44,361 nt of DNA, from the NCBI GenBank assembly GCA_051885475.1, contig JBJEXE010000025.1, positions 1-44,361 on the forward strand, given 5' to 3'. Made by a program: the position numbers and the translations under genes. The DNA is from Alphaproteobacteria bacterium (GTDB lineage: Bacteria; Pseudomonadota; Alphaproteobacteria; CAAHEQ01; UBA3637). Position 1 is the stretch's first letter. Each line of letters starts with the position of its first letter. Shown here one piece after another: positions 8,961 to 38,829 of the stretch. The notes under the pieces are model-generated. The model did no database searches. It was not told where the DNA came from and saw nothing but the letters and a program-made list of their open reading frames with translations.

Positions 8961-10409
8961 TTAAATTTTAATCAGGCCATGGATAAAGGCGTAAAGAGCT
9001 GCTAATGCCACCAAAGAGATTATCCAAGACAGGCTTTTTTCTTCCTTGGAAAAAATCAAACCTTGCGTATTTTCTTTGCGCGCCACCCAATAAACAGGAA
9101 GACCCAGCGCAATAAATACGACCGCCATCAACAAATAACCCAGTCCCGCTGCATAAATCAACCAAAGAGCGTAAAGGCTGCCCAAAAGGGCGGTCAGCTG
9201 TGCCGTAAAACGGGAAATTCCCAGATGTTGATTAAACTCACCGTCCGAGCAAATCTTCCATAAATAAAGGCAACTGGTTAAATAGGCCGGCAACACCATC
9301 ACACTGGTAATGGAAAGCATTGTATTCCATGCATTATTGGAAAAATAAACCAAGAACAAAGCCGCCTGCATCATCCAACTGGTAACCCACAAAGAAATAC
9401 TGGGAGCACCTGCATCATTTTCACGGGCAAAACATTTCGGAAATGTCCCGTTTTGAGCCATGGTTTGGGGCATTTGTGCCACAATCATTGTCCAACTGAG
9501 CCAGCTGGCCAACACAGCAATAATCAGCCCCACATTCATTATCCAAGCGCCCCATTTTCCAACCACGTGTTCCAAAACACCTGCCGTAGACGGATTGGGA
9601 ATTTGGGCAAGTTGTTCTTGAGTCATCAGCCCAAACGGCAAAATAGAAAGGAGGACATAAATCGCCAAACATCCCAAAAAACCCAACATTGTGGCACGTC
9701 CCACATCAGATTGGCTTTTGGCACGACCGGACAAAACAACGGCCCCTTCAATTCCGATAAAGGCCCACAAGGTGACCAACATCGTGCTTTTGATTTGCTG
9801 AGATAAATCGCCTAAATGATGAGTCTGGCTGTGCCCCCAAAAGTCAAAATCAAATTGGGACGCATTAAACACAACCCCCAAAATTAGAATGAATAAAACA
9901 AGAGGTACTATCTTCGCAATCGTAGCAATCAAGTTGATTTGGGCAGCTTGCCGAACACCCCGCAAGACCAACCAATTAAAGCCCCAGATAAGCAAAGAAC
10001 CTCCGATAATGGCGTTTAAATTATTGCCACCGGTAAAAACACCCGGGAAAAAATAATTCAACGCATCCATTGTAATCACAGCATATCCCACGTTGCCGAA
10101 AATCTGACAAAGCCAATAGCTCCATCCGATATTAAAGCCCATAAACGGTCCGAATCCAGAACGCGTGTACATATAAACCCCCGAAGTCAAATCAGGTTTC
10201 ACCGTGGATAAAATACGAAATGTATTGGCAATAAAATAAATCCCCACCCCTGTAATCAACCATGCTAAAATAATCGCTCCGACAGCCGCACCCTGGGCCA
10301 TATTTTGGGGCAATGAAAAAATACCACCCCCTATCATAGAACTGACCACGATACCGGCCAAGCCCAAAACACCCAGTTTGCCAGCCGAACTTATTGTATT
10401 TTTTGTCAT
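8961..10409 (-). CDS. APC-superfamily basic amino acid antiporter (ArcD/AaxC-like, arginine:agmatine or arginine:ornithine)
   Basis: About 12 TM segments. N-terminal SSMIGGGIFSLPQNMAQGA matches the ArcD family signature. Directly downstream of a pyruvoyl arginine decarboxylase gene. Confidence 0.85.
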   Translation of the reverse strand: MTKNTISSAGKLGVLGLAGIVVSSMIGGGIFSLPQNMAQGAAVGAIILAWLITGVGIYFIANTFRILSTVKPDLTSGVYMYTRSGFGPFMGFNIGWSYWLCQIFGNVGYAVITMDALNYFFPGVFTGGNNLNAIIGGSLLIWGFNWLVLRGVRQAAQINLIATIAKIVPLVLFILILGVVFNASQFDFDFWGHSQTHHLGDLSQQIKSTMLVTLWAFIGIEGAVVLSGRAKSQSDVGRATMLGFLGCLAIYVLLSILPFGLMTQEQLAQIPNPSTAGVLEHVVGKWGAWIMNVGLIIAVLASWLSWTMIVAQMPQTMAQNGTFPKCFARENDAGAPSISLWVTSWMMQAALFLVYFSNNAWNTMLSITSVMVLPAYLTSCLYLWKICSDGEFNQHLGISRFTAQLTALLGSLYALWLIYAAGLGYLLMAVVFIALGLPVYWVARKENTQGLIFSKEEKSLSWIISLVALAALYAFIHGLIKI

Positions 10410-10428
10410 TTAAAACTCCTTTTAAAAA

Positions 10429-10446
10429 GGGCAACCGAAGTTGCCC
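10429..10446 (-). terminator. Intercistronic GC hairpin (partial terminator or mRNA stabiliser) between decarboxylase and antiporter genes
   Basis: The minus strand reads GGGCAAC-ttcg-GTTGCCC, then TTTTTAAAAGGAG (T-run merging into the antiporter SD). Confidence 0.4.
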
Positions 10447-10452
10447 GATTTC

Positions 10453-11052
10453 TTACTTTTTCTTTTTGGCAGTCAAGTCCACCACCGGCGCATATTCAAA
10501 ATTGAGAAAGCCCAGTGCGGTCAAACAATAGCCAAAGTTTTGTGTCACATTCACAAAATTATGGTAAAATTGAAATTCACTGTGTTGTTGACACCCGCGT
10601 AATTGCAATTCGTGATTTAACGATTTGGTCAACCACATCTCACAGTGGGATTTCGCAATATCATCATCAATGAACGTGTCAAAATATTCCACATATTCAG
10701 CAGCCCATCCCCCCAAAAACTTACCGCGTTTATCTTTGCCCCACACAATACCAATACCCGTGGCGATAGCTTTGTGTTCTTCGGCACGAGCCCCGTTGCC
10801 GGCCATAATGACTTCCAAAACAGCACCATGTTTAAAATGTTTTTCCACCTGCTCTACCGGTACAATATTACCGAAAAGTTCCGGCGGTAAAACCGAAGTG
10901 TAAGGGATGACGTTAAAATCTTGGATTTTGGCTTGCATTAAAGCCGAATCGTAACAAAATGTTTCAAAAGGTTGCGGAGGAATACCATCTTCCGCCAAAC
11001 CTGCCCCACCGGTATGAAAAGCCAATGTGGGATAACGAGTTCCTAATTGCAT
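10453..11052 (-). CDS. aaxB: Pyruvoyl-dependent arginine decarboxylase (AaxB/PdaD type)
   Basis: [11 protein letters not shown]...[13 protein letters not shown]...[10 protein letters not shown] has a Thr52-Ser53 pair at the expected self-cleavage position, followed by [10 protein letters not shown] and SEFQF.HN motifs. About 199 aa, as for this family. Confidence 0.88.
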
Positions 11053-27812: not shown

Positions 27813-28595
27813 ATGGATTCATTATGGAATAAAGCATCTTTGCAAATTTATAAAGCATTGAACGGGCAAGTCCGTTTAGTGGGGGGATGTATTCGCGATT
27901 ATTTGTTGCGCAAACCCATGCACGACCGTGATATGGCGACCCCTTTGACACCAGATCAGGTGGAAGAAGCCCTGACCAAAGCAGGAATTGATTTTATTTC
28001 CATCGGAAAAAAATACGGCACCATTACGGCCCTTATTCAAGAAGAGCCCTATGAAATCACAACGCTACGTAAAGAAGAAAAGCACAACGGGCGTTATGCC
28101 GAAATGACATGGACGACTTCGTATAAGACAGATGCTTTACGTCGGGACTTTACCATCAATGCCCTGTCAGCAGATGTAAAAAATAAAATTTTTGATTATA
28201 CAACGGGGCGCAGTGATTTGGCGCAAGGATTGGTGCGTTTTATTGGCGACCCGGATAAACGCATTCAGGAAGATTATTTGCGCATTTTACGGTATTTTCG
28301 TTTTTGGTCGGCCATTTCATCTTTGGATTTGGATACGGCTGTTTTACAGGCCTGTAAGCGCCATAAAAAGGGGCTGGAGATTTTATCCAGCGAACGGTTG
28401 CAAGAAGAATTATTTCGCCTGGCCTGCACGCCCAGAGCCGAAGAAGCCTTTGTCGCAATGAAAAAGGCAGATTTACTGACACCCAAAATGTTAGGCCTTG
28501 ACTTTTCCAAAAAACAAAGGCAAAAATTAAACCAACTGAAAAAAGAATCTTTGTTGAAAAAAATCGGCTTCACAGCCTTTAAGGGGGAAAAATGA
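27813..28595 (+). CDS. Short class II tRNA nucleotidyltransferase / poly(A) polymerase family protein (CCA-adding-like)
   Basis: GGCIRDYLL, DRDMAT, RRDFTINA and EDYLRILRYFRF motifs. Only about 260 aa from the MDSLWNK start, so the usual C-terminal body/tail region is largely missing. Confidence 0.75.
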   Translation: MDSLWNKASLQIYKALNGQVRLVGGCIRDYLLRKPMHDRDMATPLTPDQVEEALTKAGIDFISIGKKYGTITALIQEEPYEITTLRKEEKHNGRYAEMTWTTSYKTDALRRDFTINALSADVKNKIFDYTTGRSDLAQGLVRFIGDPDKRIQEDYLRILRYFRFWSAISSLDLDTAVLQACKRHKKGLEILSSERLQEELFRLACTPRAEEAFVAMKKADLLTPKMLGLDFSKKQRQKLNQLKKESLLKKIGFTAFKGEK

Positions 28596-29137
28596 AAAAA
28601 AATTTCAATGAACACAGAGTTTCTTATACCAATCAAAATGAATCCGGGCGCACCATGTTGGAAATGTTGGGCGTGTTGGCCATTATGGGCATTATTACCT
28701 ATGGTGCCATTGCCGGCATCAATTATGGGATGAGCTCATATAAAATCAACCAAACCTACGCCGAAGTTCAAGATATTATTCAAGGGATTGAAGACCTGTA
28801 TTCTTGGAGTAAAGGATACCCCACAAGGGATGATTTGATGACAGCAGCCTGTGCGAATGCTATTTTTACAAACAGCGATTCATGCTCAACTGGAGAAAAT
28901 AGAACAGTCAGAGGAGCATTCGGCGACATGTGGGTTGAAGGAGCTGAGTGCCAGGGGGGAGGAAGAAACTCGTGTGCCAACTTTACAATCCACATTCCCA
29001 TTACGGATTCAAACGATTGCACGCGCTTGGCACAAATGGATTGGAAAGCCAACAGCATTGAATGCGTGAAGTGCGATGGCGAGCGGTGCGAATGTAATGA
29101 CAGGGTCCAAACAGATCTTTGTTTCAGTCCAATGTAA
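28592..29137 (+). CDS. Type IV pilin-like protein with atypical prepilin signal and Cys-rich C-terminal domain
   Basis: MKKNFNEHRVSYTNQNESG|RTMLEMLGVLAIMGIITYGAIAGI has Gly at -1, Glu at +5 and a ~20-aa hydrophobic helix. The C-terminal half has 12 Cys. ATGA overlap with the cca-like gene. Paralog of the 32509 gene. Confidence 0.7.
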   Translation: MKKNFNEHRVSYTNQNESGRTMLEMLGVLAIMGIITYGAIAGINYGMSSYKINQTYAEVQDIIQGIEDLYSWSKGYPTRDDLMTAACANAIFTNSDSCSTGENRTVRGAFGDMWVEGAECQGGGRNSCANFTIHIPITDSNDCTRLAQMDWKANSIECVKCDGERCECNDRVQTDLCFSPM

Positions 29138-32179: not shown

Positions 32180-32256
32180 GCGCTTGTAGCTCAGCTGGAT
32201 AGAGTGTCGCCCTCCGAAGGCGAAGGTCGTGAGTTCGAATCTCGCCAAGCGCGCCA
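32180..32256 (+). tRNA. tRNA-Arg (anticodon CCG), CCA end encoded
   Basis: Hand-folded cloverleaf: acceptor GCGCTTG/CAAGCGC, D-arm GCTCAGCTGGATAGAGT, anticodon stem TCGCC/GGCGA with loop CTCCGAA, variable AGGTC, T-arm GTGAG-TTCGAAT-CTCGC, discriminator G, then CCA. 77 nt. Confidence 0.93.
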
Positions 32257-32294: not shown

Positions 32295-32323
32295 GTTGAC
32301 ATTTTGAAAATAATCATTTACTC
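32295..32323 (+). promoter_or_regulatory. Putative promoter of the pilin-lectin gene
   Basis: TTGACA (32295..32300), 17-nt spacer, TACTCT (32318..32323). This would give a leader of about 180 nt. Confidence 0.3.
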
Positions 32324-32353
32324 TGAGTTCGCTTTATGGCAAAGGCCGTAAAG

Positions 32354-32458
32354 TCGGACATAAACAATCCGTATGCAACAAAAAACCGCTCGTCAGGGCG
32401 GATGACCGCCGAATAAATTGAATAGGCGATTTTGCTTTGTTGCACATTGTTTACGTCC
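32354..32458 (+). promoter_or_regulatory. Long imperfect hairpin in the 5' leader (possible riboregulator, attenuator or palindromic element)
   Basis: CGGACATAAACAAT..TGCAACAAA (32354..32381) pairs with TTTGTTGCA.CATTGTTTACGTCCG (32435..32458), about 22 bp with one mismatch and one bulge. The enclosed 53 nt carry mutually exclusive CCGC/GCGG, GGCGG/CCGCC and CGCC/GGCG pairings. Confidence 0.4.
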
Positions 32459-32459
32459 G

Positions 32460-32484
32460 TCCACTTGAAATAAGTGGCATTTTT
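32460..32484 (+). terminator. Weak terminator-like hairpin plus T-run just upstream of the pilin-lectin SD
   Basis: CCACTT-gaaat-AAGTGG followed by caTTTTTT. Only a 6-bp stem, so weak. It lies between the long leader hairpin and the GGAAGGGA SD. Confidence 0.25.
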
Positions 32485-32508
32485 TATTGAAAAGGAAGGG
32501 ATGTAAAA

Positions 32509-33693
32509 ATGAAAAAACAGAATTTAAAAAAACAAACTGGCGTTTCGCCCTTGATGGGAAAGTCGGTTGGGAATAAGGATATAAATGCTGCTGGATGCCC
32601 GATCAGGTCGGGCATGACAGAGTACTATGAATCCGGCCGGAGTATGGTTGAAATGCTGGGCGTGCTGGCGATTATGGGGGTGCTCTCCGTTGGTGGAGTC
32701 GCAATGTATACAACCGCGATGAATAAACACCGCGCGAACGAAATCTTGAATGAAGCCTCCAAACGGGCCACCATAGTGGCAGGACAACTTTTAAGCAATC
32801 CCGAAGCAAAGACAATGTCTTTGGCACAATTCGGAAATAATACTGTGGCAGGGGCAACCTTTGGTGAAGAGGCAACCATTTCTGATAACAACATTACTTT
32901 AACTTTATCGGATGTGGATGAGGCTATCTGTAGCCAAATGAAAGCCGCTTTGGGCGACAGCACCATTATGGCCGTGGACGATATTTGCGGCCAAATTACT
33001 TTTAATGCGGATATGAGCAGAGGTGTAGATGCCAACGGTGGGAATGGGGATAATAATGCCCCATGTACAGAAACACCAACGGGATGCCAAGTATGTATGA
33101 ATGGTGAACTTGTGGATTCTGATGATAAGTGCCCCACTGATTCAGTTTGTGTGGATGGAGTGTGTAGCGATCCTTTAACAGGTAATGGCTGCGCCAAAAA
33201 CAGCGACTGTGAAGAAGGATACTTCTGCGATTTTAAGGGCAAAGTAAATTGTGAAAAGGGTCCGAAGGGTAAAAATGGAACCTGTACCAATAGAGAATCA
33301 TTTACAAGATCCCCCGATTTAGCTGGATTTGTGTGGGGAGCGTCCACGGATTGGTTTAGTGCCAAGAATTTTTGTTTGGCATTAAATAAACGGATGGCCT
33401 CTATTTCTGATTTTAACTGCCCTTATACAGTTGAAGAATATAGAACATCGGATGTTGAATTCCCAGGGGGATATTGCTGTAAAACAAAGCAGGATAGCAT
33501 CAATGAGCAATGTGGTGATAATCAGAATGATAAGCTAGCAGAAATAATGAAAACTGTTTCAGGGGGATATTTTTGGACGAAAGACCTTACAAAAAGATCT
33601 TGTATAGCTTTCAATATGTTGGGGAATAGTGTCTATTACAACTACCGTGATGCTAACCCCAGCTATGGTGCCTACTATGCGTTGTGTAAGTAG
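32509..33693 (+). CDS. Pilin-like protein fused to a Cys-rich linker and a C-type-lectin/DUF1566-like C-terminal domain
   Basis: ...YYESG|RSMVEMLGVLAIMGVLSVGGVAMY class-III-type signal (Gly43, Glu48 at +5). Residues ~186-259 hold 14 Cys in EGF-like spacing. Residues ~264-394 read WGASTDWFSAKNFCLALNKRMASISDF...GGYFWTKDL..SCIAFNM....YYALCK, a CTLD-like pattern. An alternative start at ATG 32614 (MTEYYESG|) is possible. Confidence 0.75.
   Translation: MKKQNLKKQTGVSPLMGKSVGNKDINAAGCPIRSGMTEYYESGRSMVEMLGVLAIMGVLSVGGVAMYTTAMNKHRANEILNEASKRATIVAGQLLSNPEAKTMSLAQFGNNTVAGATFGEEATISDNNITLTLSDVDEAICSQMKAALGDSTIMAVDDICGQITFNADMSRGVDANGGNGDNNAPCTETPTGCQVCMNGELVDSDDKCPTDSVCVDGVCSDPLTGNGCAKNSDCEEGYFCDFKGKVNCEKGPKGKNGTCTNRESFTRSPDLAGFVWGASTDWFSAKNFCLALNKRMASISDFNCPYTVEEYRTSDVEFPGGYCCKTKQDSINEQCGDNQNDKLAEIMKTVSGGYFWTKDLTKRSCIAFNMLGNSVYYNYRDANPSYGAYYALCK
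32573..32622 (+). repeat. Copy A of a ~50-nt hairpin-containing repeat, in-frame inside the pilin-lectin leader coding region
   Basis: ATAAGGATATAAATGCTGCTGGAT-GCCCGA-tcagg-TCGGGC-ATGACAGAG. It encodes residues 22-38 (NKDINAAGCPIRSGMTE). Confidence 0.7.
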
Positions 33694-33776: not shown

Positions 33777-33826
33777 CAGTGTCATGCCCGACTTGACCCA
33801 GCATCCAGCAGAACTTAAAGCCTTAT
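33777..33826 (-). repeat. Copy B of the repeat, inverted relative to copy A, 84 nt downstream of the pilin-lectin stop
   Basis: The reverse complement reads ATAAGGCTTTAAGTTCTGCTGGATGCTGGGTCAAGTCGGGCATGACACTG. By my hand alignment 40 of 50 positions are identical to copy A. The internal hairpin is degenerate. Confidence 0.7.
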
Positions 33827-33830
33827 AACC

Positions 33831-33881
33831 AAAGGAATATCACGCCGCTGGATCCTCGGGTCAAGCCCGAGGATGACAGAG
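33831..33881 (+). repeat. Copy C of the repeat, head-to-head with copy B (REPIN-like doublet)
   Basis: AAAGGAATATCACGCCGCTGGAT-CCTCGGG-tcaa-GCCCGAGG-ATGACAGAG. It shares the flanks with copy A, but the stem sequence differs while pairing is kept (compensatory changes). Confidence 0.65.
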
Positions 33882-37494: not shown

Positions 37495-38829
37495 ATGTTC
37501 AATAAACCCATTTTACCCAATTTTTTAGGTGGCAATAAACTTCAGACGCCAGCATCAACTGTGCCACCAGCGCGTCCGCCAATGAGGCCCACGCCCAGTA
37601 TGGAAACTCAAGAAACACCAAAAGATGCGGTCCAAGCAGAGCCTCTGCCTACAAAAGAGGAAAGTGTCGCCCCCGTGGCAAGCACCCCTGTTATGCCCCC
37701 CAAAAAGAAAGAAGAAGTTGTTTCTGAGGGGACAACTCCCGTTACAAACGTCCCCCCAAAAGCGGAAACGACAGCCCCTTCGGCAACTGCAACGGTCACG
37801 GCCACGCCAGAAAAAAAACGTGTCTTTTCCAATCAGCCTGATCAACCAACAGATGCTGATGGCGTCGTCAGAGGGCCCAACTTGCACGACACGCGTTTTG
37901 CGGATATTTGGTTTACCCCCGAAAATACCGCCTATGTGCGTGATGTACGCACACGTTTTGCATTGACCCCCATTGAAACGCCGGATTTACCGGATTTTCG
38001 TCAGGCTTTGGAACAAGGCTTTACTGGCGCTTCCAGCTATGCCATTAAATTTGCTGGGGATTCCTACCGTGTGGAACGCGTGATGACCAATGACGGAGTG
38101 CAATTTAACTGCCGTAAAATGCCGACAGAAACACCCGAAATTGAATCTTTGGGGTTTGCCGCCCCCATTGTGAAACATCTGTCTTCATTGGGCCGTTCAG
38201 CCGGATTGTTGTTATTTGCCGGGCCAACAGGACAAGGAAAAACGACCTCTGCTTCGGCCATTATGAAACGCTTTTTGGACACAGACGGAGGCTTTTTATA
38301 CACCATTGAAGACCCACCAGAAATGCCCTTGGGTGGTCTTTATCACGCCAAAAACGGAGGCCTTGGATTATGTAAACAAACAGCCGTTGAAAATGATCAA
38401 TGGGGTGCCTGTCTGCGGTCGGCCTTGCGTTCCAAACCACGTTATATTTTGGTGGGGGAAATTCGGACGCCGGAAACAGCCAGTATGTGTTTGGTGGCTG
38501 CAACATCAGGCCACTTGGTGCTGTCCACCATTCACGCCAACGGTGTAGAAGATGCTTTGAATTCTTTGATTAAATATGCGGCCTCCACCGGTTTGGCGGA
38601 AAGTTTGGTATCCGATTTGTTAGCACGCGGTATTTTGGGCGTCATCTATCAACGTTTGGAAGGGGTGGAAACATTGAAGCTGCACTATAAAACGGCTTTT
38701 GCAAATCCCAACACCGCCGCCGCAGACCAAATGCGTATGGCTATCCGCGATGGCAGCGTCAATTTGGCCACCTTTATGGAAACACAAGAAACCCGTATGA
38801 ATCGCGGGATGCCGATGTTCAAGGAATAA
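37495..38829 (+). CDS. PilT/GspE-family type II/IV secretion ATPase with a long Pro/Thr/Lys-rich N-terminal extension
   Basis: Walker A GPTGQGKTT, Asp box TIEDPPE, Walker B ILVGEIRT, His box SGHLVLSTIHANG. Residues 1 to ~115 are low complexity (PPARPPMRPTP, PPKKKEE, PPKAETTAPSATATVTATPEKK). Strong AGGAGG SD. Confidence 0.8.
   Translation: MFNKPILPNFLGGNKLQTPASTVPPARPPMRPTPSMETQETPKDAVQAEPLPTKEESVAPVASTPVMPPKKKEEVVSEGTTPVTNVPPKAETTAPSATATVTATPEKKRVFSNQPDQPTDADGVVRGPNLHDTRFADIWFTPENTAYVRDVRTRFALTPIETPDLPDFRQALEQGFTGASSYAIKFAGDSYRVERVMTNDGVQFNCRKMPTETPEIESLGFAAPIVKHLSSLGRSAGLLLFAGPTGQGKTTSASAIMKRFLDTDGGFLYTIEDPPEMPLGGLYHAKNGGLGLCKQTAVENDQWGACLRSALRSKPRYILVGEIRTPETASMCLVAATSGHLVLSTIHANGVEDALNSLIKYAASTGLAESLVSDLLARGILGVIYQRLEGVETLKLHYKTAFANPNTAAADQMRMAIRDGSVNLATFMETQETRMNRGMPMFKE

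Follow-up and report, generated by a model that had tools for sequence, protein, structure and literature searches.

What function is served by a bacterial protein that appears to begin as a type IV pilin and to end in a domain resembling the C-type lectins of animals? The question is raised by a single gene in a 44,361-nucleotide (nt) stretch of DNA from an uncultured gut alphaproteobacterium (GenBank assembly GCA_051885475.1, contig JBJEXE010000025.1, positions 1 to 44,361 of the forward strand), referred to here in its whole length as the window. An earlier note, made from the letters of the window alone, had placed the open reading frame (ORF) at 32509 to 33693, with a product of 394 amino acids (aa). 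These boundaries are confirmed; the ORF lies on the forward strand and begins with ATG. The protein has three parts, namely, a pilin-like N-terminus, a cysteine-rich stalk, and a C-terminal head, and we read it as a modular type IV pilin-like adhesin with a head resembling a C-type-lectin-like domain (CTLD), made by a gut alphaproteobacterium. We assign this reading a probability of about 0.6. The features of the gene on which it is built are as follows:

32509..33693, forward strand: pilin-like gene, ORF with ATG start, 394 aa
32493..32501, forward strand: Shine-Dalgarno-like AGGAAGGGA, 7 nt 5' of ATG 32509, read from the sequence
32509..32637, forward strand: putative leader peptide, residues 1 to 43, last residue Gly43 (position -1), beginning at the Shine-Dalgarno-preceded ATG 32509
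32638..33018, forward strand: predicted pilin module, residues 44 to 170, with RSMVE, a hydrophobic segment of ~20 residues, a predicted helix (46 to 96), a four-stranded sheet, and Cys141/Cys160
33019..33060, forward strand: Gly/Asn/Asp-rich linker, residues 171 to 184, probably flexible (predicted local distance difference test score [pLDDT] of <50 at model residues 136 to 146)
33061..33294, forward strand: predicted disulfide-rich stalk resembling epidermal growth factor (EGF) domains, residues 185 to 262, 11 Cys, from the cysteine count, a sub-threshold DUF7107 match, and a confident model
33295..33690, forward strand: predicted CTLD-like head, residues 263 to 394, 7 Cys, from a domain model, Foldseek, and profile matches

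The precursor reads MKKQ...YYESG/RSMVEMLGVLAIMGVLSVGG, where the slash marks the predicted cleavage point, with Gly43 at -1, Arg44 at +1, and Glu48 at +5. Conservation around this point is strict: G-1, R+1, E+5, L+7, and G+8 are invariant in 116 of 116 motif-bearing homologues, in which positions +2 to +24 are also almost invariant and largely hydrophobic. Many homologues have short and often Lys-rich leaders, such as MYKEKESG and MKKTNESG. Across 110 family genes, where leader length was taken from the closest in-frame start with a Shine-Dalgarno-like motif, the mode lies at 6 to 11 residues, with a tail reaching 73 and one outlier of 130. For the present gene, an alternative start at ATG 32614, which lacks an obvious Shine-Dalgarno sequence, would give an 8-residue leader, MTEYYESG.

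Comparison with characterized pilins was carried out at the level of both profile and structure. In an hhalign comparison of the family profile with Escherichia coli PpdD, G-1 falls on G-1 and E+5 on E+5 (E 3.1e-5, probability 73%); the alignment to GspG is weaker. PpdD used as a phmmer query also retrieves family members. The family profile matches solved pilins (8tob at E 0.0035, geopilin, and 3sok), and when the short paralogues serve as the query against the Protein Data Bank (PDB), pilins are the only matches, although weak ones (E 0.2 to 0.7); in profile searches of the PDB, the N-terminal part thus matches pilins only. PilS_N, a type IVb pilin family, is the sole pilin Pfam model to match members (4 of 50, best E 9.5e-5), and some homologues carry the NCBI names "type II secretion system protein" or "FimT/FimU." In an AlphaFold model built from a 50-sequence alignment (mean pLDDT 84.9), a 51-residue helix spanning residues 46 to 96 packs on a β-sheet with pLDDT values of 90 to 96. 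The pilin-like N-terminus with Glu at +5 that the earlier note had proposed is therefore supported by the invariant G-1 and E+5, the short family leaders, the predicted helix and sheet, and the register with PpdD and solved pilins. The profile alignments are in register but weak, and removal of the leader by a prepilin peptidase is a putative step.

The pilin module is followed in the model by a low-confidence Gly/Asn linker (residues 171 to 181) and then by two confidently predicted modules. The protein contains 21 cysteines: one in the leader (Cys30), two in the pilin domain (141 and 160), 11 in residues 186 to 259, and seven in residues 266 to 394. The cysteine-rich linker described previously is thus a real stretch, while the count of 14 cysteines given for it was wrong and should read 11. 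Its likeness to EGF domains, also suggested at that time, stands on the evidence of the family. The present stalk matches DUF7107 only, below threshold (18.1 bits against a cutoff of 24.6); paralogues clearly match EGF_Teneurin (6.6e-11), EGF_TEN, EB, and EGF_2, and on this ground "EGF-like" is a fair term for the stalk. A knot of the form C..N.DC..G.YC......GTC directly precedes every copy of the head, including those in giant members with several copies. Given the odd split of 11 and 7 cysteines between the two modules, a disulfide joining stalk to head is suggested.

For the head, a Foldseek search of the PDB with the full-length model returned only weak matches, to FGE, LYVE-1, and PilW (best E 0.29), and the head was therefore re-modeled alone. 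The resulting model of residues 250 to 394 has a pLDDT of 84.1 and a predicted template-modeling (TM) score of 0.81. When it is searched against the PDB, the top 50 Foldseek matches are essentially all CTLDs, the best being CLEC9A (E 0.011, probability 0.97); further matches include LOX-1, DC-SIGNR, carbohydrate-recognition domain 4 of the mannose receptor, NKR-P1, langerin, intimin (1f00), and Bd2740 (8oks). Against BFVD, the matches are mainly C-type lectins of poxviruses and herpesviruses (best E 0.0038); a DUF1566 phage protein ranks 11th (E 0.058, TMt 0.51). TM-scores of the head's matches lie between 0.4 and 0.5. Agreement is also found at the level of primary sequence. The C-terminal landmarks that the earlier note had picked out (W282, A285, FC289, YFWTKD, C365-AF, and YALCK393) are all present, and their columns are conserved or invariant among 50 homologues. 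W282, A285, and C289 make up a WxxAxxxC motif, for which C393 near the C-terminus is the putative disulfide partner; the WxxAxxFC region aligns with the WysAeqFC motif of langerin, and a sequence profile matches ~20 CTLD chains, langerin included, around this region (E 0.025 to 0.75). The CTLD- or DUF1566-like fold proposed for the C-terminus accordingly agrees with the top matches in both databases, nearly all of them CTLDs and all of them sub-threshold. From the structural and sequence comparisons together, we regard the head as probably a divergent member of the CTLD superfamily.

The gene belongs to a large family. At E<=1e-3, 726 homologues were retrieved from 5.8 billion proteins, and at least 569 of at least 598 pattern matches, taken from one genome per GTDB species, were confirmed as relatives; with these numbers, the three-part pattern is not a product of chance. 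All homologues with a source name derive from metagenome-assembled genomes (MAGs) of an uncultured "Alphaproteobacteria bacterium," and the best 80 relatives are nearly all from gut MAGs, namely, those of human (Hadza, Nepal), goat, roe deer, sheep, buffalo, and rabbit. The host-associated lifestyle that had been guessed from the sequence is thus in keeping with an origin of the relatives in human, ruminant, and rabbit guts. Among the matches listed, the N-terminal ~140 residues are common to 120 of 120 homologues, 67 of which also have the Cys-rich and C-terminal parts. The head itself is private to the family: a phmmer search with it against 1.84 billion representative proteins gave 19 matches, two of them low-complexity artifacts, and the 17 real ones all belong to proteins with GRSM(V/I/L)E-type N-termini or to truncated fragments of the pilin-like family.

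In each of three MAGs, the fetched loci alone contain at least 12 to 16 family genes, dispersed among housekeeping genes. The paralogues keep the N-terminal 25 residues and differ in their heads, which include matches to PF00754, PF13330, PF23106, and PF01683 (discoidin, mucin-2 WxxW, and EGF arrays), and the size of members ranges from ~115 to 3,034 aa. At the lower end are members of canonical pilin size (113 to 140 mature residues), which often occur in tandem arrays and are therefore plausible major pilin subunits. Such arrays of two to four short members were seen in L011 (15998-18170, four copies), L026 (9001-10001), and L081 (8933-10206), with precursors of 120 to 147 aa and 7-residue leaders such as MMTNENG. 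At the upper end are two giants, P0121 (3,034 aa) and P0130 (2,070 aa), each with a pilin-like N-terminus (GRSMVEMI...) and four cassettes of the knot and the CTLD-like head, along with dozens of TPxWNGTxC EGF-like repeats and Gly/Thr-rich β-helix-like repeats. To our knowledge, these sizes are far above that of any known pilin. One homologue, P0004, was compared for synteny and has a different neighborhood; it is therefore not an orthologue in the same position but either a paralogue or a gene that has moved. The window itself holds a second member:

28592..29137, forward strand: second, shorter family member, 181 aa, ...NESG/RTMLEMLGVLAIMG..., with a Cys-rich C-terminus

This protein has no match in Pfam or NCBIfam. 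It lies directly 3' of a PolyA_pol/CCA-adding-type gene, and its N-terminus, ESG/RTMLEMLGVLAIMGIITYG, is divergent, with a leader of 18 residues.

If the present protein is an adhesin of this kind, a prepilin-type peptidase would remove the leader ending in Gly43 and expose Arg44. The hydrophobic N-terminal half of the helix would anchor the subunit in the inner membrane, after which the helix would dock it into a type IV filament consisting mainly of the short (113- to 140-aa) paralogues. The flexible linker of Gly and Asn, together with a rigid EGF-like stalk held by disulfide bonds, would keep the head off the fiber, most likely at or near the tip, because the head is bulky. There, it might bind a host or mucus ligand; this could be either glycan or protein, since the head has no canonical Ca2+/sugar motif. 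Paralogues with CTLD-like, discoidin, mucin-2 WxxW, and EGF-array heads would then supply a set of adhesive subunits that could be exchanged for one another.

A number of results weigh against this reading. At the N-terminus, N_methyl (PF07963) scores 11.7 bits, below its cutoff of 21.2, and TIGR02532 scores 9.2 bits, below its cutoff of 16.3. Arg at +1 (116 of 116) and Met at +3 break the usual class III consensus; in pilins, the +1 residue is as a rule hydrophobic, mostly Phe and sometimes Met, Leu, or Val, and the pattern has Leu or Thr at +3 (PROSITE PS00409). The full-length Foldseek run gave no significant pilin match, and neither the pilin domain nor the head has a structural match at E<=0.001. 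For the head, Pfam Lectin_C (PF00059) has no match in the protein at E<=10 or in 50 members at E<=0.01, DUF1566 (PF07603) has none in the protein or in 50 family members, and a motif search of the protein found none of EPN, QPD, EPS, EPD, WND, and WIGL. Given the missing sugar motif and the failure of both hidden Markov models (HMMs), lectin activity is conjecture. Members of 2,000 to 3,000 aa are, moreover, hard to fit into a filament. The assembly machinery is a further difficulty, as the window offers a single candidate:

37495..38829, forward strand: orphan ATPase of the T2SSE superfamily, 444 aa (PF00437, E 4e-30), the only candidate for type IV filament machinery in the window

This ATPase has an N-terminus of ~130 residues rich in Pro, Thr, and Ala. 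PilT, GspE, and PilB models match it at E 1e-22 to 1e-32 (the best being NCBIfam PilT at 2.9e-32), all far below their cutoffs. Orthologues with 52 to 81% identity are common in gut Alphaproteobacteria MAGs, a few of them are named "TadA" by NCBI, and they always stand alone among housekeeping genes. The ATPase gene is thus the sole machinery-like gene and has no demonstrable linkage to the pilin gene. Such a linkage was considered and rejected: in L031, the ATPase gene also lies ~5 kb from a family gene, but in another neighborhood, and in three other contigs it occurs alone among housekeeping genes. Because the neighborhoods differ and the ATPase stands alone elsewhere, its proximity to the pilin gene is consistent with chance. 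When E. coli GspO, GspF, HofC, and GspD were used as phmmer queries together with a regular expression for the A24 motif, neither the window nor ~1.3 Mb of related loci yielded a prepilin peptidase, a platform protein, or a secretin; the positive control, E. coli GspO, was recovered. Assuming genomes of ~2 Mb, however, the related loci amount to only ~0.7 genome-equivalents, so this absence is uninformative. With the machinery not found in so small a sample, processing and assembly are steps that we infer.

Two repeats that flank the mature coding region must be described before the alternatives are compared:

32558..32619, forward strand: 62-nt palindromic dispersed repeat, in frame within the leader codons (translated as ...GNKDINAAGCPIRSGMT), found by inverted-repeat and pattern searches
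33780..33841, reverse strand: inverted copy of the 62-nt repeat, 87 nt past the stop codon, found by the same searches
~33846-33880: related hairpin, read by eye and not returned by the pattern search

The translated 62-nt element is also present in the leaders of several homologues, and the long N-terminal extensions of many homologues (GCPIRSGMT, CHPELVSGS, and SSGSADAAPRMT, among others) look like translations of in-frame palindromic elements. In this respect, the leader repeat resembles the Rickettsia palindromic elements, which insert in frame in other proteins. By analogy, a leader that is cleavable, and hence tolerant, may offer a safe landing site for in-frame palindromic repeats. As a separate observation, serine-recombinase-like ORFs beginning MIYxYCRVSTxHQ... 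occur in two unrelated MAG contigs, at L019 1461-2048 and L059 4473-5063 (both on the reverse strand and divergent from pilin-family genes), and may point to inversion of nearby DNA or to a mobile element.

Three other explanations were weighed against the adhesin reading. The helix might be a mere membrane anchor, or it might belong to a subunit of the short periplasmic pseudopilus of a machine resembling the type II secretion system (T2SS). In either case, the protein would be a pseudopilin-like or inner-membrane-anchored periplasmic protein whose stalk and head are periplasmic or released, and no extracellular fiber would exist. That neither secretin, platform protein, nor prepilin peptidase was seen in the loci searched is in line with this explanation, as are the T2SS names of some homologues; disulfide-rich domains suit the periplasm as well as the surface, and the giant members suit a membrane anchor better than a fiber subunit. 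However, T2SS pseudopilins are normally encoded in a gsp operon, whereas the genes of this family are dispersed among housekeeping genes. It is hard to see what at least 12 to 16 paralogues per sampled MAG, whose varied heads are adhesive and eukaryote-like, would do in the periplasm, and the tandem genes for canonical-size pilins suggest a true filament. We therefore regard a purely periplasmic role as unlikely.

A more radical view is that the N-terminus is no class III signal at all and represents a lineage-specific Sec signal-anchor or sorting tag whose likeness to pilins is convergent. Arg at +1 is atypical, the pilin HMMs fall below threshold, matches to pilins in structure and sequence are all weak, and a single tag borne by proteins of ~115 to 3,034 aa is what is seen with sorting signals. 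Nevertheless, G-1 and E+5 are invariant and in register with PpdD, the hydrophobic stretch runs into a 51-residue helix on a pilin-size β-sheet rather than to an AXA-type end, and it is a whole pilin-size domain of ~130 residues, not a short tag, that is common to the 120 of 120 homologues among the matches listed. As the N-terminal part also matches nothing but pilins in the PDB, we consider convergence improbable. The repeats raise the question of a phase-variable cassette, in which a recombinase would act at the 62-nt inverted repeats and, by inverting the 1.2-kb segment, turn expression on and off. The position of the repeats on either side of the mature coding region invites this idea, as do the recombinase-like ORFs that adjoin family genes in L019 and L059. 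Yet complementarity between the arms is only 77%, a scan of the ~40 larger window ORFs (>=120 aa) turned up no recombinase, and the repeat resembles a palindromic element of the dispersed kind, which also occurs in translated form in the leaders of unrelated homologues. Flanking inverted repeats are present in only 6 of 90 testable family genes, and on that count an invertible cassette was rejected as a general mechanism; for the present gene, a switch of this kind would be very surprising. The reading of the protein as a modular pilin-like adhesin is thus the one retained below.

The general design of such a protein is already described. Modular pilins were defined by Raynaud et al. in 2021 as a pilin module followed by a linker and a module not specific to type IV pilus biology, and their survey counted >1,200 such proteins, which fall into 264 architectures; modules of lectin type are some of the most frequent (PMC8179133). 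The present protein fits that definition with its pilin module (44 to 170), its linker, and its EGF-like and CTLD-like modules. Dataset S1 of the same survey lists the combinations IPR012902-IPR001304 (3 proteins) and IPR012902-IPR011460 (7 proteins, plus 2 with two copies) (PMC8179133). By listed architecture, which is the only level compared, these proteins are similar to the present one in having a prepilin motif and then a module of the CTLD superfamily. They are recognized by existing signatures, whereas here both the N_methyl and the Lectin_C/DUF1566 models fail; there is no experimental study of either the Dataset S1 proteins or the present family. Binding of sialylated glycans and glycosaminoglycans by the PilC lectin module was shown by Shahin et al. 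(2023), who also modeled this module at the pilus tip (PMC9934059). The statement in the earlier note that the architecture was not recognized as described is hence incorrect, in view of both Dataset S1 combinations (PMC8179133) and PilC as a lectin-bearing modular pilin (PMC9934059).

PilC and PilB of Streptococcus sanguinis are close in plan, each joining a pilin module by a short or flexible linker to an added adhesive module of a type also known in eukaryotes. They come from a monoderm host, carry a canonical class III signal recognized by IPR012902, and have a concanavalin A-like lectin (PilC) or von Willebrand factor A (PilB) head; here, the host is a diderm alphaproteobacterium, Arg+1 is invariant, an EGF-like stalk is present, and the CTLD-like head has no HMM match. 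Each of the two is encoded once, within a pil locus, whereas the present gene is one of at least 12 to 16 dispersed paralogues per sampled MAG. Among other adhesive pilins, the type IVb minor pilins CofB and TcpB have β-repeat/β-sandwich heads, CofB being located at the tip, and the R64 PilV shufflon adhesins have several C-terminal variants produced by Rci-mediated DNA shuffling at one locus. In common with these, a constant pilin N-terminal domain would here be combined with C-terminal domains that set what the pilus binds. The variation of PilV is confined to one locus, whereas here it is spread over many separate genes, and the mostly short leaders (6 to 11 aa) are unlike those typical of type IVb pilins. 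Intimin and invasin, Legionella Lcl (DUF1566), and Bdellovibrio Bd2740 are likewise elongated surface proteins with a CTLD-like fold at their outer end. Their heads bind host or prey and are carried on autotransporter-like, collagen-like, or trimeric fiber scaffolds rather than on a pilin; similarities of the present head to intimin, Bd2740, and DUF1566 heads are sub-threshold (E 0.01 to 0.1, TM 0.4 to 0.5). Lcl binds glycosaminoglycans (PMC11162425). Set beside these systems, what is new here is the family itself, its Arg+1 signal, the EGF-like stalk, and a head that existing models do not recognize. Also new are the size and dispersal of the family, its giant members, its gut-alphaproteobacterial host range, and its interchangeable eukaryote-like heads. 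No paper in the searchable literature contained the motif string RSMVEML, and a literature search on RF32 plus pili gave nothing relevant.

Upstream of the gene, the spacer that separates it from the nearest tRNA gene is predicted to be highly structured:

32355..32485, forward strand: strongly structured 5' region (fold z-score -4.2; terminator scan)

The tRNA-Arg-to-pilin-gene spacer as a whole (32300-32510) has a minimum free energy of -62.1 kcal/mol (z -4.2), a value matched by 0 of 200 shuffles, and contains a long hairpin and, just 5' of the Shine-Dalgarno-like sequence, a terminator-like hairpin with a T-run at 32461-32477. No Rfam family covers this region, the tRNA being the only Rfam match. 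It may be an attenuator, or it may consist of further palindromic repeats.

The surrounding genes are largely ordinary. The pilin-like gene has tRNA-Arg(CCG) (32180-32256) and lgt on one side and mfd, on the opposite strand, on the other, and the window carries diderm envelope genes (LpxB, LpxI, BamD/YfiO, and YhdP) in addition to housekeeping genes. On the reverse strand at 8961-11052, a gene for a pyruvoyl-dependent arginine decarboxylase adjoins one for an amino acid permease, a pair that could form an arginine/agmatine acid-resistance or energy module. In related gut MAGs, L001 (12250-21044) contains a type IV secretion cluster of the VirB9/VirB10/VirB11 type that includes a TrbI-domain protein of 2,147 aa, and contig L084 (2184-6206) contains an FeFe-hydrogenase operon; together, these two suggest an anaerobic, host-associated lifestyle.

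A wider interpretation of the family can be put forward only tentatively. It is possible, if doubtful, that these proteins represent a previously unrecognized family of type IV filament subunits, characterized by G/RSMVEMLGVLA with Arg at +1, restricted to uncultured gut Alphaproteobacteria, and equipped with private, eukaryote-like adhesin heads. As part of the same joint and equally uncertain proposal, the target of these heads would be a eukaryotic host, either animal mucosa or a gut protist, and the machine that assembles the filament may be unconventional, as the orphan ATPase is the only component found.

In all, modular pilins are thought to explain many functions of simple type IV filaments, and the few that have been studied were found through existing signatures. 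The pilin-like family described here escapes both pilin and lectin signatures and is yet abundant in uncultured gut Alphaproteobacteria. The invariant Arg at +1 would widen the range of substrates known for prepilin peptidases. Should the heads prove to be adhesins, the family would provide a set of candidate host-binding proteins and a natural case of combinatorial head-swapping on a constant fiber subunit.

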